Positions 44,724 to 62,265 of a DNA stretch of 64,000 nt are shown here, piece after piece. Origin of the DNA: an uncultured Chlamydiae bacterium (GTDB taxonomy: Bacteria > Chlamydiota > Chlamydiia > Chlamydiales > SM23-39); the NCBI GenBank assembly GCA_963828125.1, contig CAWHDP010000001.1:160001-224000 (forward strand). The letters are read 5' to 3'. Each line of letters begins with the position of its first letter. Within the stretch, counting starts at the first letter, position 1. The translations under genes and the position numbers were made by a program. The notes below the pieces were generated by a model. That model worked only from the letters and a program-made list of their open reading frames with translations. It ran no database searches and was not told where the DNA came from.

Positions 44724-46169
44724 ATGAATATGTTTATTGAGATGGAGCCAAATTCTTTAAAATATTACCAAATGTCTCTTGCTGTAAGGTCTAAAGCATC
44801 AGTTTTGGAAAAAAATGGAAACAGTGTCTCCGAGGTAGCGTGCCAAGCCATTGCTTCCAACATAGATCGCTCTGCACTCCCTTGTAGCGTCCGTGGCCTC
44901 GTTCAACAAGTCGATCCAGGCAGTAGCATCACGCAAAAACTTAAAGCACAACTTTTTAAAAGAATCTCCTTAGATTGGAAACAAAAACTCATAAACATGT
45001 CTTTGGCCGGCCCTATCCCCAAAATACAATTGTTGCTAGATAGAAAAGCTCAACCAACCTCAGAGGAAATATTTTTAACAATACAGGCTGCGATCAATTT
45101 GGATATCTCTGAAGACCATTTGATTTCTCAATTCGTTCATTGGATGGTCGCTGATTTTGCAAATATACATAATTTGACATATTCAGTTGTAGATCCTAAA
45201 ACTAATCATGCACTCGATGAGTGGATAATAAAAATTGCTAAGACACAAACGGAGCTTGGGCATAAAGATATCACGGACGAGTTACGTCAAAAATTCTTCG
45301 ATCCGCAGATCTCACACATCTTCAAAATCTTTTATATTGTGGAACATGTCAATTTGGTTGTTATAAAAAACCAATTTGCTGAAAAATCAGAAATCTTTAT
45401 GGTAGGCTATCCTTTCAAAACTGGGCCTAAGAATGATCAAAGTTATATTGTTTTTCATCCGGCCATGTTGAAGGAAATTCTCGCTCTTCTGTTCCCAGAC
45501 ACATATCTCAATCCAATTCCTGTGTTAGGGCAAAGAAACATCGAGACTTTTTCAAATGATAATGAACGGATTGTCTCCTTGGTGATGAACCCCTCCCTCC
45601 CGCCCCCAAATCCAGGAAAAATATTACCGCTCCCATTTTATCTTCATGATGGAATCCATTGTATATTCGATTCATCCAATCCGTTTCGTTCTTTTTATAA
45701 TGCGTTAGGAAAGAAACTGAGAGTTGCAGCAAATAATCAAAATAATTCCTCAGAGTTAAAGTTTGCTTTAGAATTTGCCTCGGCGCAAGCAATTGATAAA
45801 ATCTCATCGCAATACTTCTATCTAAAAAATATATACCAACCATTCCCTCGCCGTGGTCTTCAATCCTTTTTGAACGAGCTCATCACGGAATCCTATTTTC
45901 AAATCGATCCAGCAACTGACCACAGTGCAATCGCAATCCATTCGAAGGACCCGAATTTTCGCAATACACTGGAAACGATAATCACGAGACAGATTATTGA
46001 CTGCATACACACGAGCAAAGGCAATGAAAGGCTTTTGGATACTTTAGCAGAAACAGACTTTTCAGAAGACGAATCATGGTACAGAGCGAGTGTAGTCCCC
46101 ATGAGGGAAATTATTCAAGCTGTCAAATCTGTAAAATCCGGTGATGCATCAATTATTCAACCTACTTGA
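44724..46169 (+). CDS. Hypothetical protein (481 aa), AT-rich, effector-like, with an HDxxH motif
   Basis: Long ORF with its own promoter; PIPVLG...FYLHDGIHC. Confidence 0.75.
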   Translation: MNMFIEMEPNSLKYYQMSLAVRSKASVLEKNGNSVSEVACQAIASNIDRSALPCSVRGLVQQVDPGSSITQKLKAQLFKRISLDWKQKLINMSLAGPIPKIQLLLDRKAQPTSEEIFLTIQAAINLDISEDHLISQFVHWMVADFANIHNLTYSVVDPKTNHALDEWIIKIAKTQTELGHKDITDELRQKFFDPQISHIFKIFYIVEHVNLVVIKNQFAEKSEIFMVGYPFKTGPKNDQSYIVFHPAMLKEILALLFPDTYLNPIPVLGQRNIETFSNDNERIVSLVMNPSLPPPNPGKILPLPFYLHDGIHCIFDSSNPFRSFYNALGKKLRVAANNQNNSSELKFALEFASAQAIDKISSQYFYLKNIYQPFPRRGLQSFLNELITESYFQIDPATDHSAIAIHSKDPNFRNTLETIITRQIIDCIHTSKGNERLLDTLAETDFSEDESWYRASVVPMREIIQAVKSVKSGDASIIQPT

Positions 46170-46231: not shown

Positions 46232-47359
46232 TTAATTGTCCTTTTTTTCCAAGGAAGGAGATGGCTTCGATGCGGGTAAAGAGTCCACAGTGGATAAAAA
46301 AGCATGTAACTCTCTCCATGTATTGAATTCCGGCAGCGGCATCAATTCAACCATATGTCTCAGGCGCGAAAACTGAATGGTTCCGGTTTGTTTCAACGAA
46401 TCGTATGTGTCGGTACTAGTAGTATCGTATCCGTATGCGGCTCGAACGTCTATCTTGCGGAACCAGAGGTCATGTTGAGGTTGAACGGATGAAGGAGGGT
46501 CGAACAACTCTCCAATCTGAGTGTCTATATCTTCACAAATCGATTGAAAATCTTCCTTAGTTATCTGAGATATTTCAATGGACATTCTGAACAGATGCCC
46601 ATAGTCTTTCCTTAGAAATCGTCGTATTGGTCCATTTTTGAAAGCAGATACTATTTGCTTAGCAGCGTCTCGCCCTACCAAATGCCATGTCGGGGCTTTG
46701 TAGAAATTGATTTTGAGAGTGTCTCTCATTGATAAAATGGTATTGGGCTGGTCTCGAATAATTGTATTTAACAAATCATCCAACTCTTTCGGTCGTATAC
46801 TTGTTTCGGAGTCCACATTCGTTTCCACTAAGGCAACCATGAGCCTCAAGTGAGGGAAAACAATCGTTCCAGTTGTTGCTTGTGGATCGTAGATTGGGTT
46901 CTCATAGCTGGTATCGTATTGATATCGGGTATCGAGCGGTATTTTCGATTTTCCAAGGTGGTGTCCGATTTGAGGGGCGGGAGGCAGGTCCGATATGTCG
47001 TCGATCTTGCGCACTAATTTTTGCAAAAGCTGGTCAAAATCTTCTTTTCGAATTTCAAGGACTTTAATTTCAAAACGGAATATGTGTCCATAATCTTTCT
47101 GTAAGAATGGTCTTAGTTGCCTATTAAACGTATCCATTATTTTTTGAACCCCAGAATCCAATATGGGGGCTGAAAGCTGCGATAATTGGAATGGCGCAAA
47201 TGATAATGATAATGATGCAAATGATAATGATAATGATGCAACTGCGACATTGATGTCGAGATTTTCCCTAATTGACAAAGGACTGGCGGGTTGGTTTTCA
47301 ACAATGTTGTCTAGCATCCGTCGCGTGTCTAAGGGCTTTGCTTGTGGAATTGGGTTCAT
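46232..47359 (-). CDS. Hypothetical protein with two copies of the locus-specific domain
   Basis: RPFLQKDYGHIFRFEI...EDF...YQYDT...GTIVFPHLRLMV and RRFLRKDYGHLFRMSI...EDF...YGYDT...GTIQFSRLRHMV. Confidence 0.8.
   Translation of the reverse strand: MNPIPQAKPLDTRRMLDNIVENQPASPLSIRENLDINVAVASLSLSFASLSLSFAPFQLSQLSAPILDSGVQKIMDTFNRQLRPFLQKDYGHIFRFEIKVLEIRKEDFDQLLQKLVRKIDDISDLPPAPQIGHHLGKSKIPLDTRYQYDTSYENPIYDPQATTGTIVFPHLRLMVALVETNVDSETSIRPKELDDLLNTIIRDQPNTILSMRDTLKINFYKAPTWHLVGRDAAKQIVSAFKNGPIRRFLRKDYGHLFRMSIEISQITKEDFQSICEDIDTQIGELFDPPSSVQPQHDLWFRKIDVRAAYGYDTTSTDTYDSLKQTGTIQFSRLRHMVELMPLPEFNTWRELHAFLSTVDSLPASKPSPSLEKKDN
47196..47241. repeat. 21-bp in-frame tandem duplication (ASLSLSF twice)
   Basis: GCAAATGATAATGATAATGAT twice, then GCAA. 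Confidence 0.85.
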
Positions 47360-47528: not shown

Positions 47529-47689
47529 GAGCCTATTCGCAATGCGGGACAAAAAATTTGGGGGATCTTTTGGGCGCTTTTCGTCCTTTTTTTCTCGAGA
47601 ATATTCAAGAATATCCTCGCGTCAAAAATCAAGAAAATCATTCCGACGCCTCCTCCCCTCTTTTTTGTGCCGACATTGCGGATAGGCTC
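47529..47689. mobile_element. 161-bp MITE-like element with ~28-bp imperfect terminal inverted repeats
   Basis: Left end GAGCCTATTCGCAATGCGGGACAAAAAA versus reverse complement of right end GAGCCTATCCGCAATGTCGGCACAAAAAA; homologous copies at 49503 and 50700. Confidence 0.7.
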
Positions 47690-47716: not shown

Positions 47717-48688
47717 ATGAATCTTCAGCCTGTATCACCGTTTCCTGTATCGATCAGACGAGCAGAAGCCATACTGCCAGCGGAGAATCCTCAGCAAATA
47801 CCGGACAGTCCCCAACAATACCCATTCAATGTCCTGGAGATATGTCAGCTGATTCAGCAAAAACACCCGGCAAGCGCTTTATTTGCTAACGGCTGCGACT
47901 TTGTTTCGCATGAGGAGGTAATAGACGAATGGCGCTGGGAGGCGGCACCGGACGCTACGTCAAAGGTATTCGATGCGATACGAGGACAGTTTGCCTGGAT
48001 AAAACAATTCTTATGTCACAATTGGGGGAGACTGCTCATTTGGAATACTAAAGTAGGTAGTGTAACATGGCTTCTGTAAATTCAAACCGTAGGTTTGAAT
48101 TTACAGAAGCCATGTTACACTACCGAGCGATCCGGAGGCTTCATTTTTCCTCATATGAGACTGAAGGTGGAACCCCAACTATCGATGCGGGACAACATGC
48201 CGGAGGATCATGTCCCGGCCCCGTCTATCCTAGCCGTATGTAGGCAAGAGATTCGCAGCCGACAGCCCCGTAGTGCTTTGTTTGCTTCCGGCTGCTTCAC
48301 GATTGAGCAAAAAGGGCTGCTATTAGGCTTCAATTGTAATTTGAAAGATTTCGCAGTAGAGGAGATAATTAATGAGGTAATGAATACATTTAATGAAACT
48401 ATAAGACCGGTGATATCTAAAGATTGTGGAAATATGTGCAGGTACGAGATTACAGTGCGGAAAAAATCTTGCGAGGATTGGGTAAAGATCTGTGAGGGGG
48501 TGAAGAAAAAAATCGGTGAGTTATCGGACAAGCTTGCAGAGGTTTCGTATCCATACGATACGACCTGTTCCTCGACGTTTCAGTCAAAAAAGCAGTTAGG
48601 GAATTTGGTTTTTTCTTCCTTAAGACTGATGGTTGACGAGGCCCCGCCTGTGTTGTCTTCGCCGCAACTGGCAGAGGCGACGTCATAA
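47717..48688 (+). pseudogene. Two-domain paralog interrupted by a 69-bp palindrome carrying an in-frame TAA
   Basis: ORFs 47717-48079 and 48095-48688 share one frame; the first domain lacks its middle; the second (RPVISKDCGNMCRYEI...EDW...YPYDT...GNLVFSSLRLMV) is intact. Confidence 0.7.
48056..48124. mobile_element. Perfect 33-bp inverted repeat with a 3-nt loop (IS-end remnant or mini-MITE)
   Basis: GGTAGTGTAACATGGCTTCTGTAAATTCAAACC-GTA-exact reverse complement. Confidence 0.75.
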
Positions 48689-48714: not shown

Positions 48715-48787
48715 GACATTGGCCATTTATGGGCGCTGCGCGCTTCGGATATCTGCTCAGCACCCCCGATCAATGGCCCATGTCCAG
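48715..48787. repeat. GACATTGGCC palindromic element, copy A
   Basis: GACATTGGCCATT...AATGGCCCATGTC long imperfect hairpin between convergent genes. Confidence 0.75.
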
Positions 48788-48789
48788 TG

Positions 48790-49410
48790 TTAGTGATCTT
48801 TTTGTTCTCCTTGCAAAGAAGGCTCCGCCGTCAAGTCCATGGTTGCCGTCAGCGCAGTCAAATCGGCCACCGACGTGGGCGCTAACTCAACTTTGTGTAG
48901 GATGAACTCAAACAAAATTTGTCCCTCGTTCGTTGTTGGATTATGGAGCACTTGGTAACTGCTAGCGTATCCATATTTGGTACTCCTGTTTATTTTATCG
49001 TCTGTAGAGTTTGGTCCTCGTGGGATCTGGGACATTTCCGATACAGAATGTTTCAACTGTGCGAACAGGCCTAGCACAGCCTCAGAAAGTTTCTTAAAAT
49101 CATCTCGAGAGATCGGATTTACTTGAATTGCCCAATGGGACATGTGTCGATAGTCTTCACATAAGTATGGTGCTATATCCCGCACAAAATATGCTATGAA
49201 CTTTTGAGCTAATTGCTTAATCTCCAAGACGTTAAGCTGTTCAGAGGAAGGGGATGAATTATTGAACGTCAAGACATCAGTACGGAAAGAGATCTGTTCT
49301 CGTGCGTTCTTCAAAGGATGGTGAGGGAGGCACTCTTCAATGGCCCCTTCTGCCCAGCTTAGAGCGCGGTGGCTATCAAACAGGGGCTGGTTGCTTGTCG
49401 TTTTGTTCAT
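48790..49410 (-). CDS. Hypothetical protein (206 aa), single-domain paralog A
   Basis: IAPYLCEDYRHMSHWAIQV..ISRDDF...YGYASS...GQILFEFILHKVELAP. Confidence 0.8.
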   Translation of the reverse strand: MNKTTSNQPLFDSHRALSWAEGAIEECLPHHPLKNAREQISFRTDVLTFNNSSPSSEQLNVLEIKQLAQKFIAYFVRDIAPYLCEDYRHMSHWAIQVNPISRDDFKKLSEAVLGLFAQLKHSVSEMSQIPRGPNSTDDKINRSTKYGYASSYQVLHNPTTNEGQILFEFILHKVELAPTSVADLTALTATMDLTAEPSLQGEQKDH

Positions 49411-49502
49411 ATCTTACCAATTTACGTAGTGGACGGTGTTTAATTTTTTTTGTTTTCTACGGGGTTATTCATTGCTGAATTGGCTGGCTCCAATTCAACC
49501 AT

Positions 49503-49642
49503 GAGTCTCATGCGAGAAAAAACAAGGGCGCTTTTCGTCCTTTTTTCTTCGAGAAGATTCAAGAATATTCTCTCGTCAAAAATCAAGAAAATCATCCCGA
49601 AACCCCCTCCCATCTTTTTCTCCCGACATTGCGGATTGGCTC
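49503..49642. mobile_element. Degenerate copy of the 161-bp MITE-like element
   Basis: Aligns with 47572-47689 (GGGCGCTTTTCGTCC...CCGACATTGCGGAT.GGCTC); left end eroded. Confidence 0.65.
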
Positions 49643-49667
49643 GCGTACCGTTAAAGATGTGGAGAAA

Positions 49668-49696
49668 ATTCTACGACTCGCATGTGTATAAGTCAA
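49668..49696 (-). promoter_or_regulatory. Shared promoter block, copy 2
   Basis: TTGACT-17 nt-TAGAAT on the minus strand. Confidence 0.7.
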
Positions 49697-49750
49697 GCGA
49701 ACACTTATCGAATTGCAATTTCAGCGCGCATCGGATATGATCGCTCCGTT

Positions 49751-49911
49751 ATGATAGGGACATTTTTATTTTTGGGCACTGGCGCATCGGCGGGCGTCCC
49801 GATCATCGGCTGCAAGTGTGCTGTTTGCATCTCCACTTCGCGAAAAAACAAGCGTTTCCGCCCCTCGGGGTTGATTCAGCTCGAAGGGAAATCGATCTTG
49901 ATCGACATCGG
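49751..49911 (+). pseudogene. 5' fragment of the PhnP-like gene created by the duplication
   Basis: Same translation as 50948-51108 (MIGTFLFLGTGASAGVP...ILIDIG), then runs into the hairpin element. Confidence 0.9.
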
Positions 49912-49912
49912 T

Positions 49913-49982
49913 ATTGGCCATTTATGGGCGCTGCGCGCTTCGGATATCTGCTCAGCACCCCCGATAAATGGCCCATGTCCAG
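49913..49982. repeat. GACATTGGCC palindromic element, copy B, at the duplication junction
   Basis: Nearly identical to 48718-48787. Confidence 0.8.
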
Positions 49983-49986
49983 TGTG

Positions 49987-50607
49987 TTAGTGATCTTTTT
50001 GTTCTCCTTGCAAAGAAGGCTCCGCCGTCAAGTCCATGGTTGCCGTCATCGCAGTCAAAGCGGTCACCGACGTGGGCGCTAACTCAACTTTGTGTAGGAT
50101 GAACTCAAACAAAATTTGTCCCTCGTTCGTTTCTGGATTATGGAACCGTTGGTGACTGCTAGCGTATCCATATTGGGTACTCCTGTTTATTTTATCGTCT
50201 GTAGAGTTTGGTCCTCGTAGGCTCTCGGACATTTTCGATACAGAATGTTTCAACTGTGCGAACAGGCCTAGCACAGCATCAGAAAGTGTCTTAAAATCAT
50301 CTAGAGAGATCGGCGTTACTTTAATTGCCCAATGGGCCATGTGTTGATAGTCTTCACATAAGTATGGTGCTATACTCTCCACAAAATGTTGTATGCACTG
50401 TCCAGCTAATAGACCAACCTGCAAGACGTTAGTCTGTTTAGAGGAAGCGGATAAAATCTCGAGCGTAAAGAAATCAGTACAGAAAGAGACCTGTGCCTTT
50501 GCGTTCTTCAAAGGATGGTTAGGGAGGTGCTTTTGAATGAACGCTCCTGCCCTGCTTAGAGCGCGGTTGCTATCAAACGGGGACGGGTTGCTTGTCGTTG
50601 TGTTCAT
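49987..50607 (-). CDS. Hypothetical protein (206 aa), single-domain paralog B
   Basis: Colinear and gap-free with 48790-49410; about 73% aa identity by hand count. Confidence 0.8.
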   Translation of the reverse strand: MNTTTSNPSPFDSNRALSRAGAFIQKHLPNHPLKNAKAQVSFCTDFFTLEILSASSKQTNVLQVGLLAGQCIQHFVESIAPYLCEDYQHMAHWAIKVTPISLDDFKTLSDAVLGLFAQLKHSVSKMSESLRGPNSTDDKINRSTQYGYASSHQRFHNPETNEGQILFEFILHKVELAPTSVTALTAMTATMDLTAEPSLQGEQKDH

Positions 50608-50699
50608 ATCTTACCAATTTACGTAGTGGACGGTGTTTAATTTTTTTTGTTTTCTACGGGGTTATTCATTGCTGAATTGGCTGGCTCCAATTCAACCAT

Positions 50700-50839
50700 G
50701 AGTCTCATGCGAGAAAAAACAAGGGCGCTTTTCGTCCTTTTTTCTTCGAGAAGATTCAAGAATATTCTCTCGTCAAAAATCAAGAAAATCATCCCGAAAC
50801 CCCCTCCCATCTTTTTCTCCCGACATTGCGGATTGGCTC
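50700..50839. mobile_element. Degenerate copy of the 161-bp MITE-like element
   Basis: Identical to 49503-49642. Confidence 0.65.
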
Positions 50840-50864
50840 GCGTACCGTTAAAGATGTGGAGAAA

Positions 50865-50893
50865 ATTCTACGACTCGCATGTGTATAAGTCAA
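50865..50893 (-). promoter_or_regulatory. Shared promoter block, copy 3
   Basis: TTGACT-17 nt-TAGAAT on the minus strand. Confidence 0.7.
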
Positions 50894-50947
50894 GCGAACA
50901 CTTATCGAATTGCAATTTCAGCGCGCATCGGATATGATCGCTCCGTT

Positions 50948-51724
50948 ATGATAGGAACATTTTTATTTTTGGGCACTGGCGCATCGGCGGGCGTCCCGAT
51001 CATCGGCTGCAAGTGTGCTGTTTGCATCTCCACTTCGCGAAAAAACAAGCGTTTCCGCCCCTCGGGGTTGATTCAGCTCGAAGGGAAATCGATCTTGATC
51101 GACATCGGGCCCGATTTTAGGAGCCAGGCGATCCAATTCGGAGTCGAATCGATCGACGGGCTTCTGCTGACTCATACCCACTACGACCATATAGCAGGTA
51201 TTGACGAGGTCCGAATTTTCAATGTGCGGCAAAAAAAACCGCTCCCCTGTCTTCTCTCCAAGGAGAGTTATGAAGAGCTCCAGAGAAGGTATTATTATTT
51301 TTTCGATGTGAAGGGGCAGAGTGCAAAGTTGGACTGTATCCCGTTGGACGGCCAGAGGGGGGAGGTCGAATTTTTGGGGTTGAAAATCGGTTTTTGCAGT
51401 TATTTCCAAAGCGTGATGAAGGTCACTGGCTTTCGGATCGGCGAGTTTGCCTATATTTCCGATATTCACAAAATGGACGACGCCATCATTCAGTCTCTCA
51501 GGGGAGTGCGTAAGCTCGTGGTGAGTGCGTTGGGGGTTGAAGATTCTCCTTTCCACTTCTCTTTTCGGCAGGCTGTTGATTTTGCTGAAAACGTGGGAGC
51601 GGAGGAGACTTGGCTCACTCATGCGGGGCATTTCCTCGATCACGACGCGATCGACGCCCTTTTGCCCGTTAACGTGAGAATGGGGTATGATGGACTCAGG
51701 TGGGAGTTCACATGCACGAATTGA
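50948..51724 (+). CDS. MBL-fold metallo-hydrolase (PhnP-like)
   Basis: FLGTGASAGVP..GC.C.VC, THTHYDHIAG, AYISD, LTH. Confidence 0.92.
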   Translation: MIGTFLFLGTGASAGVPIIGCKCAVCISTSRKNKRFRPSGLIQLEGKSILIDIGPDFRSQAIQFGVESIDGLLLTHTHYDHIAGIDEVRIFNVRQKKPLPCLLSKESYEELQRRYYYFFDVKGQSAKLDCIPLDGQRGEVEFLGLKIGFCSYFQSVMKVTGFRIGEFAYISDIHKMDDAIIQSLRGVRKLVVSALGVEDSPFHFSFRQAVDFAENVGAEETWLTHAGHFLDHDAIDALLPVNVRMGYDGLRWEFTCTN

Positions 51725-53705: not shown

Positions 53706-53860
53706 GAGCCCTTCTCGCGGAAAATCCACATCGGGAAATACTGGCCGAATAAAAAAAAATATTTACAAATTGGCGTCCCCTGGTATTATATAAAAATTTT
53801 AGATCCAATCCGTTTGCTGACGTAAGGCGGCAAATGGGGAGAACCACTGTGGAGATTTTC

Positions 53861-56800
53861 GTGAAAAGTAAGGTCGTTCTGTTTCTTATGTCAAGCGTTG
53901 CGATGCAGCTGCTCGCTACCTCTTATACTTGGAATATATCGAGCAATGGAACTTGGAGCACCGATGCAGATTGGACGCCCAATACCGGATTTCCAAATGG
54001 GACGAGCGATACGGCGGCGTTTCCAGCATTTGCCGCGTCGACAATCGCTGTGAGCGGGATCAATTCCTATACAGTCAATGCACTTACATTTAGCGGAAAT
54101 ACCACAGCCTACACACTGAGCGGAAGCGGCCTCACGATTGGAGGCTCAACGCCCACGATTACCGCAACAGGAACGAAAAATCATGCGATCTCAGTCCCTA
54201 TCACACTCGATACAGCCCTGACGGTCAATGTGGGCTCAGGGGGAACCGTCACTTCATCCGGGGGCATTTCGGGAAGTTTTGGAGTCACTCAATCTGGCGG
54301 GACGGGGGGTTTTATCCTTTCTAACACCAACTCATTCACAGGTGCGATTCTGGTGTCCGCAGGGACTCTTGTGACAGGGACTTCAAATACATTCCCCACG
54401 GCCAGCACGAACACGGTGACTGTCAATTCGCCTGGAGTCATCGATTTATTCAACAATAACAACGCGATGTATTCTCTCGGGGGTTCAGGGACAGTGACGG
54501 CTAGCTATGCGTCAGCGACGCTCACGATTGATAGCTCAAGCACCTTTGGCGGCAGCTTGACGAACCATTTAGGGGTGACGTTAGGGAGTGGAGTGACCCT
54601 CACTCTTTCAGGTTCAGGGAATAGCTACACAGGAGCTACTTCGGTTCCTTCCGGAACGGTTCTTGAAGCAGGGGCGTCTAATTCCCTCCCTTCGGCCTCC
54701 GCGATCACTGTAGGGGGAACGCTCGCTTTGGAAAATTATGCCAATAATGCCATCGGCTCTCTTTTCGGCTCCGGCTCCGTAACGACAAGCGGTTCGGGCG
54801 TGACGCTGCAAATCAACAACGGGGGTATTTTTTCTGGAACATTGCCAAGCAACTTGACCGCTCTGTATCTAAACGGGGGGAGCTTGCAGCTTCTCACTGG
54901 CGCCACTTACCCGTACCCATTCACTGGCGGTTCTGGGGGGCTCGAGATCGGCTCGTTTTCTATGCCTACCGACGATATCACTGTGATCTTTAGTAGCGCG
55001 GGATCTTCCTTTTCAAATACGAGCAGCACGTACTCAGGCGGCACCACGGTTTCTGAGGGGAGCACTTTGGAAGCAGACGCTCAATTTACCTTTTCTAACA
55101 ATTCCGCTGTGACAGTATACGGAACCCTCCAGTTAAATAATTTTTCCAACAGCATCGGCGGTTTAGAGGGAGACGGGACGATCGGGGCTTCCTATAATGT
55201 GATGACGGAGTCGCCTCCGACATTGACCATCTATGGCGGGGGTAATTTCATCGGAAATGGCTGGCCCGTTGTCAGCGGCAATCAATTAGCGGCGCTGAAT
55301 CTAGAAGGCGGCGGAACGTTGCAGTTTATCGATAACACGCAAACATTTCCTTATCCTTTTACCGGGGGATCCGGAGGCATTGAGTTGAGCGATGATTCCA
55401 ATATGACCCTTGAGACGGCCAACACCTATACCGGAGGGACAGCCATTGACGAGCTCAGCACATTGACAGTTCTCTATTCGGGGAATTTTTCCTCGTCAGG
55501 CAATTTTGTTGTGAACGGAACGTTCAATATGAACGATTCGACTACAATGGCTGACAACACGGTGATTACTGTCGGACCTTTGAGTGGGACTGGCACCATT
55601 AATTTGGGAAATCACGCGATTCAAGTTTCCCCAGTCTTCGGCGACTCGTCTAATAATTTTGGCGGCATCCTTACTGGGACTACGCTCAGTGGATATTCCG
55701 GCAATCTCATTATCAATGGCGAGTCTAACGGTACTTTAATCTTATCGGGCTCTGCAAACACTTACCCAGGCGCTACGACGATCACGAGCGGGATTCTCCA
55801 GGCTGGAGAGAACAATACCCTCCCCGCCAATACAGATGTTTTCGTGGCAACCAATGGAACTCTTGCAGTCTCTGACTACTCGATCCAAATCTATAGCCTT
55901 TCCGGATCAGGGGCCGTCACGACGGGTACTTCTCCTACAGCCCTCCTGACCATCACCAATGGATCGACTCCCCATACTGGTTCGGGCACCTTCTCAGGCG
56001 CTATAGTAGATGGAGGATCGGGCGGCGTGGTGATCAATGGAGGGACTTTTACCTGCAGCAATGGGACTCAATTCGCAAACACCTATAGCGGCCCTACAAG
56101 TGTCAATGGGATCGCCGTTTTACAAGCGAATGGAACGAATTCGCTCCCCTATCAATCTCCAATCACTTTAAATGATGCGGCTGTATTGGATATTTCAACA
56201 AATCCATCTAATAACCAGATCGCCGGACTTTACGGCAGTAGCGATTCTACTGTGTTATTGGGGTCGGGCACTCAGCTCACCGTTACAGGTGGAGGGACTT
56301 ATCTTGGCGTGATGAGCGGGGTGGGTCAGTTGATCAATACCACCGAACTTTTAACTCTGGAAGGGGAAAATACTTTCCAAGGGGGGACTACGGTCTCTTC
56401 GGGAACCTTGGCTTTAGCCGGCAACGGTTATCTCTTATCGACAGGCGCCGTATCGGTAACGGGTACTTTCGATGTGAGCGCCATTTCCTCGAATTTTACT
56501 AATATCGGCACTCTGACCGGTTCTGGGATTGTCAACCTCGGAGATAAAGAACTCAGATTGAACCCTACAACCTCTTCTTCTACGTTCAACGGGACGATTC
56601 AAGGTACGGAAGGATCTTTGACTTTAGTGGGAAATGGGAGCGGAAATACCGTGATCCTTACGGGAATCAATAATACTTATACCGGGACGACCTTAGTCAC
56701 CGGTAGCTCTGGCTCACTCGGAACCCTTGAAATCGGAGCGAGCGGGGCTCTTTCTCCTCAAACCAACGTAGTGGTAGAAAACTATGGGGTGTTTCAATTA

Positions 56801-59800
56801 AATCCAGGAACCACGAATACCGCTCTGACCCTCACAAGCTCGGGTGTGGTCAATAACATGTCAGACCCCAGCACGTTTACGGACATTTCAGTGACAGGCG
56901 GGACATTTAATAATACAGGGAATACAGTTCTCACTTTTGACTCCTTCGACATGACTGGCGGACTCTTGATTAACGGAAGTTCTTCGTTAGTGGATACAAG
57001 TTCGATGGGGAGCCTCACTCCCGCTGACCAAGGGCCCTTCATGATCACAGGCGGAACCATTGATAACTACAGCGTATTCAACCTAACCACGTATACCCAA
57101 GGTTCAGAAGCGACTCTCAACATGGAATTTAGCCTGGTTAGTCCTGCGAATGCGCCGCCGCTGATCAGTTGCAGCGGTGACGCCACTCTCGATGGAACCC
57201 TCAACGTCATTTACAACGGGACAGCTCCCGGATCCTTCGCGAGCGCTTATCCATTGATAGAGTCAAACCATAACATTGGCAGCTTTGCGACTACCTCCAT
57301 CAGTGGATTCGGCACTACGCCGCCGCCTGTACTCATCCCCACCTATTCTACTCTTTACCTCTTTTTCGCCTCGACCAACGCCGCTTGGGGACTCAATGGG
57401 AGCGGATCGTGGGATATCGGAAGCGGCGACTATGTGAACTGGCATCCCACTGGAATTCCAGGCGTCGTTGCGGGAAATACGACGATTGTGAACTTTAATG
57501 ACACTCCGATGGGAAGCGCCCCTGATATCACGGTCTCCTTATCAGATGCAGCTGGGACTGGCCCGCTTGCTGTGACTGTATATCAGATGAATTTTGATTC
57601 GTCTATCCATTCCTATACAATTGAACAGTACAACTCTTCCAGTTCCATCACCTTTGCCACATCGAGCGATTCATTAAATACGCAAATCAACGTAATCCTC
57701 GGTTCGCATGAGATTGACGCTCCGATCCTTATCGACACCGGTTTTGCAAACACGGGCGGAGATCTTTATCTAACAGACGGAACTCAATTGACCCTTGGAT
57801 CTAATACAACGATGACGAGCGGATCTACGGACGGCGACTATCTGGAAATTTTTCAAGGCGGCGCAGGCCATCTTGGAACAGGTGAATTGGCGAACAATGG
57901 AAACTTAACGCCGACCGCAATCTATCAATATGGGGCAACTATCTCAAACAGCGGGACGATCAACCCCGACGTATACGGCATTTATCCTGAAGAGGGAGAT
58001 AAGGCCTTTTTCTATAACAGCGGAACGGGTGCTGTCTTGGGTTCCACTGAAGCAGGTTATGATGGAACTACATACATCGGATACTACGGAGGGACTGTCG
58101 AAATTGTGAACAGCGGCACCAACGCTACATTCGGATCCTCCGCAAATGATAATATAATGTTGATTGGGAGCGATGGGTATGGCGGCAGCACAACGATCAC
58201 GAATAGCGGATACAACTCATCCTTTGGTCCCACCGGCCCCAATGGTTATTTCTACACATATGGAGATGGGACCTTGAGTATAACGAATACAGGACTTGGC
58301 AATCTCATGGGAGCTTTCGGAAATGGTGCGATTGTCGAGGCCACCTACGGCACTATTTACAATAGCTCGGGAGCTATTTTCCGCGCGGGGCCAGGGGGAA
58401 GCCTCAACATTGAAGGGGCTCGAATCATCAATGATCTTCGCAGTGTCGTCGGCGGCACGGATCAAGACGTGGTACTCACTTCCGGTCTTCTCAATACGAG
58501 CGGATCCGTTTTGGCCTTTGACTATGAACAAAGCGGTTCGGGTCTGTTGCAAATGAACTTGACCACCTTGCCCAATGTCCTTGGACAAGTGACAGCTGAC
58601 GCTGCCGCGAGTTTGGGTGGCAATTTAGTTGTGAACGCATTACCGGGTTGTAATTTCCCTGCGGGCGATGTAGTGGATCTCATTACAGCTCAATTGGGCG
58701 TGAACGGCACCTTTACATCGGTTGAGTACACAGGGTTTCCCGATACGATCAACCCCTCGATCACGTATCTTCTAAACGCCGTCGTCCTCGATGTGAACCC
58801 CACGGTGAGCGCCTCAACCTCTGCGGGCTCCATTCCCGCTTTTTCGTTCATTTCGACAAACCAAAACAATTTTCAGGTAGGAAGATATATCTCGCAACTG
58901 CATGGGCGTTTAGCTCGCAAAACTCAAAATCAGCAAACGGTTGCTCGCGATGCGATGGAAACCAATCTGCTCGCATCGAACAGCGAGGGTGCAATCGTGG
59001 CGGCAAAGGGAGCTCCTCTCGGCAGCCGAGAGACCCTAAGGAAAGAGACAACGGAGATTCACAACAAGGTCGTTAACCGGATCCCTTCTCGTCCTTGGAA
59101 TTTCTACATGGGGCCCATTGATTCTGTGGGAACCATCGGCGCCAAGAGTTCTACGCAAGCGGGCGTCAGCTATAACTCGATCGGCGCATTGGCCGGTTTT
59201 GATTATGCATTGAGTCGATATGGACTGGGATTTTCCGCCTCTTACGCCAACACAGCGGGGAGAGTCGATCATGGAGGTCGCCTCTCGCTCAATGGCATAC
59301 ATGGGAGCGCATACGGAATCTGGACGCCTGAGAATTTAGATCAGTTAGGGATCAGCGCCATTCTCGGCGGGGGATACGAGTGGATCTCGGTGGATCGAAA
59401 AGCGGGACCTAGCCCTGCCCTTACAGCTCACGGCAGTCCGAATGGAGCGGAGTTCGATGCGCTGCTCGGCGTAGAATATATCTTCTCAAACAGGCAGTTC
59501 TCCGCATTTCCGCAACACTTGCAGTTAACCCCCCTTGCAAACCTCCAGTACATCGGCGCCTGGATTGATTCGTACAATGAGACAAATGGAGGGCAGTTCG
59601 CTCTCAATGTGAAGAACCAGTCCCCCAATTCCCTCAGATCGCTTCTTGGCGCTAGACTCGATTACACCTATGTAACGAGCCAGATGACCTTTAAGCAAGA
59701 GTTCGATATCGGCTGGCAATACGAGTATTTAGATGATGCCCGGCAGTTGAATTTTGCGACGGTCAACCTAGCTTCAACCAAAGTTGTCGGTACACAAGTG

Positions 59801-59950
59801 ATTGGCGCTCACGGAAGTATGCTCTGGGCTGGCGTTGACTTTTTGCTCACCGTGAGAGAGGTGTTCGAATTCGAAGCGAGCTATGATTTACAGTGGAATT
59901 CATCTTATTTGAATAACGGGTTCTATCTGGGATTTGGGGGCAATTTCTAG
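53861..59950 (+). CDS. Large autotransporter (type Va) adhesin-like protein with beta-helical passenger repeats
   Basis: Signal peptide from GTG at 53861; many LxLSGxNTYTGxTxVxxGTL repeats; C-terminal barrel ending FYLGFGGNF. Confidence 0.9.
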   Translation: MKSKVVLFLMSSVAMQLLATSYTWNISSNGTWSTDADWTPNTGFPNGTSDTAAFPAFAASTIAVSGINSYTVNALTFSGNTTAYTLSGSGLTIGGSTPTITATGTKNHAISVPITLDTALTVNVGSGGTVTSSGGISGSFGVTQSGGTGGFILSNTNSFTGAILVSAGTLVTGTSNTFPTASTNTVTVNSPGVIDLFNNNNAMYSLGGSGTVTASYASATLTIDSSSTFGGSLTNHLGVTLGSGVTLTLSGSGNSYTGATSVPSGTVLEAGASNSLPSASAITVGGTLALENYANNAIGSLFGSGSVTTSGSGVTLQINNGGIFSGTLPSNLTALYLNGGSLQLLTGATYPYPFTGGSGGLEIGSFSMPTDDITVIFSSAGSSFSNTSSTYSGGTTVSEGSTLEADAQFTFSNNSAVTVYGTLQLNNFSNSIGGLEGDGTIGASYNVMTESPPTLTIYGGGNFIGNGWPVVSGNQLAALNLEGGGTLQFIDNTQTFPYPFTGGSGGIELSDDSNMTLETANTYTGGTAIDELSTLTVLYSGNFSSSGNFVVNGTFNMNDSTTMADNTVITVGPLSGTGTINLGNHAIQVSPVFGDSSNNFGGILTGTTLSGYSGNLIINGESNGTLILSGSANTYPGATTITSGILQAGENNTLPANTDVFVATNGTLAVSDYSIQIYSLSGSGAVTTGTSPTALLTITNGSTPHTGSGTFSGAIVDGGSGGVVINGGTFTCSNGTQFANTYSGPTSVNGIAVLQANGTNSLPYQSPITLNDAAVLDISTNPSNNQIAGLYGSSDSTVLLGSGTQLTVTGGGTYLGVMSGVGQLINTTELLTLEGENTFQGGTTVSSGTLALAGNGYLLSTGAVSVTGTFDVSAISSNFTNIGTLTGSGIVNLGDKELRLNPTTSSSTFNGTIQGTEGSLTLVGNGSGNTVILTGINNTYTGTTLVTGSSGSLGTLEIGASGALSPQTNVVVENYGVFQLNPGTTNTALTLTSSGVVNNMSDPSTFTDISVTGGTFNNTGNTVLTFDSFDMTGGLLINGSSSLVDTSSMGSLTPADQGPFMITGGTIDNYSVFNLTTYTQGSEATLNMEFSLVSPANAPPLISCSGDATLDGTLNVIYNGTAPGSFASAYPLIESNHNIGSFATTSISGFGTTPPPVLIPTYSTLYLFFASTNAAWGLNGSGSWDIGSGDYVNWHPTGIPGVVAGNTTIVNFNDTPMGSAPDITVSLSDAAGTGPLAVTVYQMNFDSSIHSYTIEQYNSSSSITFATSSDSLNTQINVILGSHEIDAPILIDTGFANTGGDLYLTDGTQLTLGSNTTMTSGSTDGDYLEIFQGGAGHLGTGELANNGNLTPTAIYQYGATISNSGTINPDVYGIYPEEGDKAFFYNSGTGAVLGSTEAGYDGTTYIGYYGGTVEIVNSGTNATFGSSANDNIMLIGSDGYGGSTTITNSGYNSSFGPTGPNGYFYTYGDGTLSITNTGLGNLMGAFGNGAIVEATYGTIYNSSGAIFRAGPGGSLNIEGARIINDLRSVVGGTDQDVVLTSGLLNTSGSVLAFDYEQSGSGLLQMNLTTLPNVLGQVTADAAASLGGNLVVNALPGCNFPAGDVVDLITAQLGVNGTFTSVEYTGFPDTINPSITYLLNAVVLDVNPTVSASTSAGSIPAFSFISTNQNNFQVGRYISQLHGRLARKTQNQQTVARDAMETNLLASNSEGAIVAAKGAPLGSRETLRKETTEIHNKVVNRIPSRPWNFYMGPIDSVGTIGAKSSTQAGVSYNSIGALAGFDYALSRYGLGFSASYANTAGRVDHGGRLSLNGIHGSAYGIWTPENLDQLGISAILGGGYEWISVDRKAGPSPALTAHGSPNGAEFDALLGVEYIFSNRQFSAFPQHLQLTPLANLQYIGAWIDSYNETNGGQFALNVKNQSPNSLRSLLGARLDYTYVTSQMTFKQEFDIGWQYEYLDDARQLNFATVNLASTKVVGTQVIGAHGSMLWAGVDFLLTVREVFEFEASYDLQWNSSYLNNGFYLGFGGNF

Positions 59951-60006: not shown

Positions 60007-62265
60007 GTGATGCAGAAGTGGTACGGAGCCTTAGCGGCTCATCTGGCGGGCTGGATAGCCGTGGCAATGGTCGCGCTGAGCGGGCCTTTGCGCGGGGGAA
60101 CGCTCGGCCTAGTCGCGGGTTATAACGACAACACCACTGCCGCTGGCCTGGCCCTTGTGATCCCGTCAGGGAACACCCTGGCAGTGTACGATTTTTCCTC
60201 CTCGCTTCTCTGGGGCAACAGCGGCTCTGTCAACGCTTCGAGCTGTGCGCTCAATGGTGCAGGGACGATCGGCCTGGTCGCGGGCTACGACGACAACGTG
60301 GCGGCCGCTGGCCTGGCCCTTGTGATCCCATCAGGCAACGCTCTGAGAGTATACGATTTTTCCTCCTCGCTCTCCTGGGACGGCGGCGACGCCTTAGGCT
60401 GCGCGCTCAATGGCGGAGGGACGCTCGGTCTGGTCGCGGGTTACAATACTGACAGCACCACTGGCCTGGCTCTTGTGGTTCCGTCAGGGAACACCCTGGC
60501 AGTGTACGATTTTTCTTCTTCTCTCTCTTCTTGGGGCGACGGCGGCGCCTCTGGCTGCGCGCTCAATGGTGCTGGAACGTTCGGCCTAGTCGCGGGCCAA
60601 ACGGCCGGCAGGACGGCGGGGCTGGCCGTTGTGATGCCATCGGGAGACACCCTTGCAGTACACGATGCTTCTAGCTTGCTCTCTTCTTGGGGCGCTGGCG
60701 GCGTGACCTATGGCTGCGCGCTCAATGGCGGAGGGACGTTTGGCCTTGTCGTGGGCGAAAACCACAGCTCGGGCTTTGCCGCCGCCGGCTTGGCCCTTGT
60801 GACCCGATCTGGCGACAGCTTCACGCTCTACGATTTTTCTTCTTCGCTCCCCTGGGGCGTCGGCAGCGGCGCCAGCGCCTCAGGCTGCGCGCTCAATGAT
60901 GCCGGAACGTTGGGCCTTGTCGCAGGTTACAACTACAACATGGGTATCGCAGGTCTTGCTGTCGTGATCCCGTCAGGGGGTACCCTTGCAGTGTACGATT
61001 TTTCCACTTCGCTCCCCTGGGGCAACGGCAACGCCTCGAGCTGCGCGCTCAATGGCGCAGGTACGCTTGGCCTTGTCGCGGGCTATAACCGCAACACAGA
61101 TACCCCCGGCCTTGCCGTTGTGATCCCATCCAGCCATACCCTGACTGTTTACGATTTTTCCACCTCGCTTCCTTGGGGCAGCGGCAGCGTCTCCGGCTGC
61201 GCCCTTGGCGGCCTGGCTCAGGCGCTGACTCCCACTGCGATAGGATCTCCTGCATCTAGCGTGAGCTACACTGTGCTGAGTGAATCCGCTGCCCTGTCTG
61301 CACATGGGGCGCAAAAAAAAATCGGAGCCATGTTCCGGGGAGTTCTCGGGAATCAAGCAGTGAGTCTCATCGCCGATGCTTCAAAAGCGGTGCGCTCAAC
61401 ACGGACGGGCTCATTACATTACCCGCCATTGTCCTCCAAGGATCGGTATTCTGTGTGGATGATGCCCTTCGCCGATTTGTTGTATCAGGCGTCGCAGGGC
61501 GATAACCCTGCTTTTTCCAATGAAATCATAGGCGCTCTGCTGGGTTTTGATGCGCAGTGCGGCCGGGAAGCTTTTGTGGGCGTCGGGGCTGCTTATGCGT
61601 TTAATTATGTCGATTATGGGAAGGCGTTAGGACACGCTACCATCAATCAAGAAACAGCAGTTGCATACGGTTCTTGGAACGGGGATACGATGTTTGTCAA
61701 CGCCTCTCTTTGGGGGGGATTTTATCAATTGCACAACATACGCCATCACATACTGACAGCGACGTCTCATTTCGACGGGTACATCTTTTCGCCCCATATA
61801 GAGACCGGAGCCGTCATTTGCGCGCAAACAGATTTCTTCTTCCTTGAACCGTTCGGCGCGCTCGATTGGGCAAATGACTGGCAGAGCCATTTTACCGAAA
61901 AAGGACCTACTGGACTCTTTGTCCCTGAACACTACTCTTCCCTTTTGCGCAGCGAGGCAGGTTTCCGTTTCTATGAAACATTCACGAAAGATTGGGGATG
62001 GCTGTATTTGGTGGAAAAATTAAGCTATATCAACCAAACGCCTTTTGGTCTGGGCAGCGCATCGGTTTCATTCGCAAGCTCCAACATTGTGTTTCCTGTG
62101 GCTATAGGCAGTGTACAGACGCAAAATTTGGGAGGGGTCGAACTCCATTGTATCTTCGTCCCTCGGCGCGAAAATGCGTTCTACGGAGCTATCGATCTAC
62201 AAGGTGAATTCGGCGCATCCTTCCAATCTTATTTTGCAACCGCCGCTGTGGGCAAAACTTTCTGA
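60007..62265 (+). CDS. Autotransporter with a seven-repeat passenger (putative beta-propeller)
   Basis: Signal peptide, seven 52-57-aa repeats, barrel (SVWMMPF...LLRSEAGFRF...VGKTF). Confidence 0.85.
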   Translation: MMQKWYGALAAHLAGWIAVAMVALSGPLRGGTLGLVAGYNDNTTAAGLALVIPSGNTLAVYDFSSSLLWGNSGSVNASSCALNGAGTIGLVAGYDDNVAAAGLALVIPSGNALRVYDFSSSLSWDGGDALGCALNGGGTLGLVAGYNTDSTTGLALVVPSGNTLAVYDFSSSLSSWGDGGASGCALNGAGTFGLVAGQTAGRTAGLAVVMPSGDTLAVHDASSLLSSWGAGGVTYGCALNGGGTFGLVVGENHSSGFAAAGLALVTRSGDSFTLYDFSSSLPWGVGSGASASGCALNDAGTLGLVAGYNYNMGIAGLAVVIPSGGTLAVYDFSTSLPWGNGNASSCALNGAGTLGLVAGYNRNTDTPGLAVVIPSSHTLTVYDFSTSLPWGSGSVSGCALGGLAQALTPTAIGSPASSVSYTVLSESAALSAHGAQKKIGAMFRGVLGNQAVSLIADASKAVRSTRTGSLHYPPLSSKDRYSVWMMPFADLLYQASQGDNPAFSNEIIGALLGFDAQCGREAFVGVGAAYAFNYVDYGKALGHATINQETAVAYGSWNGDTMFVNASLWGGFYQLHNIRHHILTATSHFDGYIFSPHIETGAVICAQTDFFFLEPFGALDWANDWQSHFTEKGPTGLFVPEHYSSLLRSEAGFRFYETFTKDWGWLYLVEKLSYINQTPFGLGSASVSFASSNIVFPVAIGSVQTQNLGGVELHCIFVPRRENAFYGAIDLQGEFGASFQSYFATAAVGKTF
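60094..61212 (+). repeat. Seven intragenic tandem repeats of about 156-171 bp
   Basis: GTLGLVAGY-x-GLALVIPSGxTLAVYDFSSSLxW-x-CALNG seven times; similar at the DNA level too. Confidence 0.92.

Follow-up and report, generated by a model that had tools for sequence, protein, structure and literature searches.

Twin tandem genes of an uncultured chlamydia differ by 56 amino-acid replacements and no synonymous-only codon

Among the closest described systems are the PEX and NEX effector families of the Parachlamydiaceae, which expand as tandem copies by birth-and-death and whose tandem arrays, in the part of the source drawn on here, are under purifying selection, with M0 estimates of dN/dS of 0.29-0.63 (Domman et al. 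2014, PMC4209131). In the same part of the source, the authors suppose an early burst of change after duplication, with a very small window for detecting it (PMC4209131). The twin genes A and B described below are likewise lineage-specific putative effectors of an environmental chlamydia. Unlike the F-box and BTB proteins of PEX and NEX, with their purifying selection, the twins carry no known domain, have a dN/dS ratio (omega) whose lower bound is 6.7, and fall inside the early window.

Positive selection has been described in the same phylum in Chlamydia trachomatis, where Incs or type III effectors make up 21 of the 31 genes whose dN/dS is significantly above 1 (PMC4291473, consulted in part), and where such values are concentrated in host-facing secreted proteins. 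Those cases concern alleles of strains, whereas the twins are paralogs; no sequence relationship between them was found, and neither the sequence nor the model of the twins has, by eye, an obvious Inc-type hydrophobic hairpin. For secretion loci of Bartonella, the portion of the article used weighs positive selection against recombination (PMC3610622). Effectors whose silent changes are few or absent are described for filamentous plant pathogens, among them AVR-Pik of Magnaporthe, which has four replacements among its alleles and a known receptor (10.1101/171223, in part). As in the twins, replacements without silent changes are placed at the surface, in our case on a predicted structure, and for the fungus they are put down to an arms race between effector and host receptor; unlike these four replacements among fungal alleles, the twins display 56 between two bacterial paralogs. 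Diversity-generating retroelements (DGRs), finally, mutate template adenines (10.1101/2020.04.01.020958, in part). The variation of their targets is also non-synonymous only, but the twins have no template repeat, DGR reverse transcriptase, adenine bias, or C-type lectin among the fold matches listed, and their changes are spread over the whole gene. A literature search, with most subscription papers and supplements outside its scope and thus not proof of absence, turned up no pair of paralogs with such a pattern, in chlamydiae or in other bacteria. The twins represent a known process in an extreme, well-clocked form, acting on an undescribed protein family.

The window, that is, the whole stretch of 64,000 nucleotides analysed here, belongs to a genome of 2.37 Mb in two contigs that is 95% complete. 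The twins lie between genes for a FAD oxidoreductase and for PhnP. Across nine genomes of the genus, five have little or nothing in this interval and four have differing extra genes; here it is occupied by about 6 kb of orphans, whose GC content is 43%, compared with 50% in the window. The interval is a genus-wide insertion hotspot. Its features, as far as they concern the twins, are the following.

46232..47359, minus strand: older paralog of 375 aa, with two domains of the twin family, 25-28% identical to A
48095..48688, plus strand: older paralog with one domain of the twin family
48715..48792, no strand assigned: dispersed palindromic (REP-like) element at the left breakpoint, with relatives elsewhere in the genome (z -2.3)
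48718..49911, no strand assigned: copy 1 of the duplication unit, 1194 bp (palindromic repeat element, gene A, upstream region, 5' phnP fragment)
48790..49410, minus strand: twin gene A, 206 aa, 621 nt, orphan
49526..49645, also 50723-50842 and 47572-47689, no strand assigned: dispersed intergenic element of about 117 bp, upstream of each twin and at one more place
49682..49990, plus strand: truncated phnP-like frame (passenger), created by the duplication
49904..49920, no strand assigned: junction (phnP fragment, one extra T at 49912, then the repeat element)
49913..51108, no strand assigned: copy 2 of the duplication unit, 1196 bp, with the same parts as copy 1 except for gene B in place of A, continuing into the intact phnP
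49987..50607, minus strand: twin gene B, 206 aa, 621 nt, 73% identical to A
50879..51724, plus strand: intact phnP-like gene with a metallo-beta-lactamase fold (PF12706), the right anchor of the hotspot

The two parental breakpoints, 48714 and 51100, share 8 of 9 bases, a microhomology at the duplication junction. The duplication, with this microhomology at its junction, carried a phnP fragment along. The closest named relatives of PhnP include MAGs labelled Parachlamydiales, Chlamydiales and Chlamydiota.

The DNA that was duplicated together with the genes provides an internal clock. The original prediction, made by reading the sequence, described the flanks as near-identical, with one base difference in some 500 bp of upstream DNA and PhnP-like fragment. 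The upstream passenger (49411-49911 against 50608-51108, 501 bases) does contain exactly one difference, at 49759, in a silent Gly codon of the phnP fragment; for the flanks as a whole the description needs amending, as the downstream, or left, passenger (48718-48789 against 49913-49986, 72 bases) adds one substitution and a 2-base indel. In total, 2 of 573 passenger bases differ, besides the indel.

Inside the genes the situation is quite different. The gap-free codon alignment of A and B, both 621 nt long, has 71 nucleotide differences across 56 codons, all 56 of them replacements and none synonymous only. The two 206-residue frames had been credited with about 56 residue differences, about 37 of them in the first 80 positions, and both figures turn out to be exact. 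Every difference had also been placed in a residue-changing codon; this stands, but the codon of R37K requires at least one silent step, and the hidden silent changes number 1 to 4, not strictly 0. What did not survive the count is the remark that codons often differ at two or three bases: codons with one, two and three differing bases number 43, 11 and 2, so that only 13 of the 56 are concerned, and a zero-truncated Poisson distribution over about 143 codons expects 43.3, 10.7 and 2.0. Given this fit, the multi-base codons are repeated single hits. The differences fall on codon positions 1, 2 and 3 in the proportion 37/28/6, all six substitution types are present, and charge is altered by 24 of the 56 replacements. 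When sites are polarised by the older paralogs, weak outgroups of about 25% identity, 15 side with A and 7 with B, and both twins seem, from these sequences, to have changed since their divergence. A second gene in another frame was considered and ruled out: the other five reading frames each carry 6-17 stops, and none is open. A promoter scan gave 7 sites, against 5.7 expected.

That neutral divergence is not the source of this pattern, and that very strong diversifying selection is, had been proposed at the outset, together with a check of dN/dS on the codon alignment; all tests, including the Poisson analysis above and the analysis of the protein core below, back the proposal. By the NG86 method, dN is 0.158 and dS is 0.017, a ratio of 9, so dS is not comparable to dN. 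The pairwise maximum-likelihood codon model yields an omega of 53, a loose point value since it comes from two sequences with 1-4 silent steps, with a profile lower 95% bound of 6.7; the likelihood-ratio test against omega = 1 has p=2.5e-9, and omega is significant in each half of the gene separately. Neutral simulations of 71 random changes produce 12-16 silent codons on average; for each of three values of kappa, the transition bias, 0 of 20,000 runs were free of silent codons; a stop codon is avoided in just 6-7% of random placements of 71 changes. Compared with the passenger, the divergence of the gene is in excess with a Fisher p=7e-19: the passenger clock (2/573) predicts 1.7 replacements where about 69 are seen, which is a 41-fold excess, or 11-fold at the upper Poisson bound. 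The excess of about 40-fold is an upper-end figure, as gene conversion could have slowed the passenger clock of the twins.

The same genome was screened for other paralogs with this behaviour. Among its 161 pairs, 37 with saturated dS were set aside before omega above 2 was counted, and just 2 of the 124 others exceed that value: the twins and a second tandem pair.

C1:339475-341253 and 341873-343651 (region C1:338936-343696): second tandem pair, 592 aa each, with 36 replacements against 1 silent codon

Under the codon model the second pair has an omega of 13, with a lower bound of 2.7, and an in-gene dS of 0.3%. Its ankyrin matches are below the cut-off, as is a C-terminal AvrB/Fido-like match (E 0.07) that was searched for on account of a motif; the model of the C-terminal half has a pLDDT of 34. 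In the passenger of the second pair, 8 of 584 bases are different, a share no lower than that in the gene (Fisher p=0.24). These differences are mostly silent, in a truncated peptidase fragment, and 6 of the 8 lie within 133 bp of one boundary, a pattern that hints at gene conversion or at alleles that had diverged before the duplication. At the junction, 35 bp match DNA about 420 bp past the second copy, and because of this match a larger duplication followed by a deletion is suggested. In a closed genome of the same family, G160, where genes cut by the ends of 20-kb stretches were missed, 0 of 214 pairs exceed a pN/pS of 2, and several tandem orphan arrays have values of 0.5-1.0. With 2 of 124 pairs in one genome and 0 of 214 in the other, the pattern is rare and not a by-product of the method. 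The highest pN/pS of G160, about 1.5 with the repeats as aligned, is that of tandem repeat-protein paralogs at L212:4632-9271. In the genome of the twins, a repeat-rich paralog family at C2:133439-135025 and C2:354017-360110 has a dN/dS of about 0.6-1.0, far above most pairs.

The family of the twins consists of five local domains: A, B, two in the paralog at 46232-47359 and one at 48095-48688, the older ones being 22-30% identical. No Pfam family matches A or B at E<=1, and no eukaryote-like domain, F-box or BTB was found in them. Scored with the family profile, 0 of 399 genomes of the phylum matched, one further genome not being scored; a search with protein A found it in 0 of 60 relatives, and one genome of the genus gave E 0.006. 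Homologue searches produced 2 matches among 174 candidates, both within the organism's own clusters, and a search of 1.84 billion representatives gave 4, all of them the organism's own genes or fragments thereof; none of 120 candidate stretches of metagenome contigs held a homologue, and the Atlas feature search gave no usable match. The best PDB sequence match has an E of 0.28.

AlphaFold2, run on the five sequences, predicts with medium confidence (mean pLDDT 65) a two-layer alpha/beta domain, beta-alpha-beta-alpha-beta-beta, at about residues 41-172, together with an N-terminal helix and a leader rich in S/T/P/N/Q. Compared with 48,161 chains, the model finds IF3-C, SirA, Alba, Schlafen and SAMD9 domains, with a best Z of 5.9. 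Residues 41-172 align to the two-layer folds of the IF3-C, Alba and SirA type (6x2d, 3hz7, 2m71, 7fex) with Z 5.3-5.9 and rmsd 2.7-7.5 over 73-108 residues; but firm membership in IF3-C or Alba is another matter, as identity is 3-8%, Z stays under 8 and the best Foldseek E is 0.037. The predicted likeness is that of a common arrangement and implies no function. On this model the replacements avoid the core and sit on helix faces that point outward. With core columns defined by the three older domains, 5 of 33 such positions differ, against 38 of 104 elsewhere (p=0.03); the last predicted strand is invariant; and in three helices the variable moment points 165-172 degrees away from the hydrophobic moment, in a test that uses A and B residues and is partly circular. 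Since the changes spare the predicted core, and bring neither stop nor frameshift, both copies would have been kept folded.

On the role of the protein, the genome has one full-length match to PF00771 (SctV/FlhA family, E 8e-228), the sole type III component examined. The residues S, T, P, N and Q serve as a proxy for type III leaders. By this crude proxy, their share in residues 2-15 places B in the top 0.1% and A in the top 3.5% of 1128 ORFs; the leaders of the second pair, at the 72nd percentile of the same ORFs, are not rich in these residues. The twin protein is likely host-interacting, and type III effector is the role that we rank likeliest. The original prediction had named host or phage as the partner; nothing in the data points to phage.

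It is thus probable, in our opinion, that a 1.2-kb tandem duplication was followed by point mutation and intense diversifying selection on a probably secreted protein that the host likely recognises or binds. Residue change outran the neutral clock, at least 6.7-fold by the in-gene estimate and some 40-fold by the passenger DNA, with outward faces of the modelled domain changed, its core spared and both copies intact. Single-base changes would have been swept by selection through a near-clonal population, and the proteins would be type III effectors engaged in an arms race with the host. The wide spread of the changes, with about 143 of 206 codons open to change, may fit escape from recognition somewhat better than the tuning of one binding site. 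Bacterial mutation rates are of the order of 1e-10 to 1e-9 per site per generation. With such rates, we infer that a neutral divergence of 0.35% takes from millions up to tens of millions of generations, in which about 70 sweeps could follow one another. One may go further and conjecture, tentatively and with more doubt than belief, that the eukaryotic host, probably some protist or a small invertebrate, recognises injected bacterial proteins by a system that evolves fast, and that both pairs are avirulence-type effectors in a gene-for-gene race as steep as that of plant-pathogenic fungi or steeper. If so, the twins would be ready-made baits for the host receptor.

Selection on the protein is common to this account and to the first three of its rivals. 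The first, which differs from it in the order of events alone, has A and B diverging as single-copy alleles, under balancing selection in different strains, and being joined later by recombination. Across both duplications, the coding fragments in the passenger have 5 silent changes against 2 replacements, a ratio to be expected had they still been intact genes while they diverged; if they were pseudogenes, with the silent share taken to be 36%, P is 0.06. On the other side, the microhomology at the junction and the truncated phnP are as for a local duplication. The alleles themselves can be sought in public sequencing runs: those containing the stretch are soil and marine metagenomes of two studies, where the evidence consists of contigs rather than reads, with depth only roughly informative. 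A third allele of the variable N-terminal block is absent from the contigs listed for four runs of the two studies and from the other database variants of the twins, 4 in number, which have two private changes in all, F11V and P99T. As a check of the copies in the population, these contigs contain A and B, at about doubled depth, and yield none of the further alleles that had been looked for. We consider the prior divergence of alleles rather unlikely.

Somewhat less likely still is that the duplication is old and that gene conversion has homogenised it everywhere but at the sites under selection, which would inflate dN/dS and make the pair look younger than it is. The clustering of passenger differences near a boundary of the second pair, together with its in-gene dS below the passenger rate, goes in this direction, as do the nearly identical C-terminal thirds of the twins and the fact that all 4 other database variants, and two contigs of the runs, are mosaics of A and B. 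But the mosaic breakpoints all lie within identical runs of 20-67 nt, and the assemblies concerned collapse the copies of the second pair into a contig of double depth, so the mosaics are possibly assembly chimeras. Moreover, the 42 unchanged codons among codons 2-80 hold 29.7 silent sites, all at most 10 nt from a selected difference, and 0 of these sites differ; conversion tracts would consequently need to be shorter than about 10-20 nt.

The selecting agent could also be something other than the host: phages, bacterial competitors or, inside the bacterium, the sister copy, in a self/non-self or lock-and-key pair. The locus is a variable island, and the predicted fold resembles nucleic-acid-binding modules such as IF3-C, Alba, Schlafen and SAMD9. 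Against this, the Z scores are those of a common arrangement, the family gives nothing below E 0.03 in PADLOC and nothing below E 0.01 in PHROG, and the effector-like leaders and the sub-threshold ankyrin matches of the second pair point to the host; a non-host agent thus appears quite improbable.

That assembly set two strain alleles side by side, making an artefact of the tandem, is very improbable, even though the evidence is in contigs only and no listed contig spans the junction. Run X1, possibly the source sample, yields separate, unmixed contigs that are identical to the variable half of A, at depth 10.9, and to that of B, at 15.7. The upstream part common to both stands at 23.3 and the flanks at 11-14: both the sum over A and B and the shared part are about twice the flank. 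The second pair is also at about double depth in X1. Contigs of X1, X2 and X4 break exactly at 49911/49913, and those of X1 also at 48747 and 51079; a graph must branch there if junction and parental paths are both in the reads. Run X3, of a different study, contains the N-terminal part of A, unchanged.

The remaining rival, a targeted mutator, is hardly credible and largely refuted, although the variable regions of DGRs likewise lack silent codons and are enriched in changes at codon positions 1 and 2 (10.1101/2020.04.01.020958, in part) and a template could be missing from a 95% complete genome in two contigs: a template mutated at one base predicts at most 9 shared copies of that base where 112-168 are seen for each of the four (for adenine, 7 predicted and 168 seen in A and B), and the contigs show no cloud of alleles. 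In addition, 33 of the 71 differences do not involve A, and the fold searches with the twin model return IF3-C/Alba-like rows, with Z under 6 and no C-type lectin match listed. The genome contains no full-length DGR reverse transcriptase, its one RVT_1 match being a 95-aa frame in an RHS region. Cassette-based antigenic variation, as in the pilE/pilS and vlsE systems, relies on silent donor cassettes and leaves mosaic expressed alleles. Here, blastn and tblastn of the duplication unit found no third copy of its coding part in the genome, and a profile search of all 9017 ORFs found no donor cassette, just the five local domains. With neither donor nor DGR-type reverse transcriptase, no base bias, and multi-base codons that fit a Poisson distribution, the targeted diversification or cassette conversion once proposed as an alternative to selection is not supported.

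Bacterial effector repertoires are supposed to grow through a step of fast divergence right after duplication, which is rarely seen; this genome shows it twice, with an unusually clean internal clock in the co-duplicated passenger DNA. Two proteins are thereby marked as a likely front line with the host, and the twins form a natural pair differing by selected residues only. A cheap screen is suggested: in uncultured symbionts with long-read genomes, one would look for recent tandem pairs whose dN/dS lies far above 1. Short-read assemblies collapse or scramble such pairs.

A few further observations concern the surroundings. The reverse-transcriptase fragment lies about 71 kb away, at C1:137.5 kb (L005:1477-1764), amid RHS-type genes, and its motif is presumably group II intron-like. 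At the FAD-oxidoreductase/phnP hotspot of another genome, G010, three small tandem paralogs occupy L027:8448-9822, and one relative is found in G012 at L032:9900-10331; they look like the twins by eye, but were rejected as relatives by profile comparison (probability 0.2%, E 0.35). The core of the 117-bp element also adjoins the second tandem pair, shorter cores precede other large orphans, and at C2:224051-226584 two inverted copies flank a 675-aa orphan, resembling a composite mobile unit. Five otherwise unlike orphan frames (44724-46169 in the window, C1:339475, C1:341873, C2:322459 and C2:820944) have in common an N-terminal leader of 35-45 residues, likely a shuffled secretion-signal module. 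A perfect 33-bp inverted repeat with a 3-base loop (48056-48124, z -16) overlaps ORF 47717-48079 at its end and ORF 48095-48688 at its start; these two ORFs also have one short segment in common. Farther along the window, a 2038-aa autotransporter-like protein is encoded at 53834-59950, followed by repeats of about 156 bp at 60066-61205.
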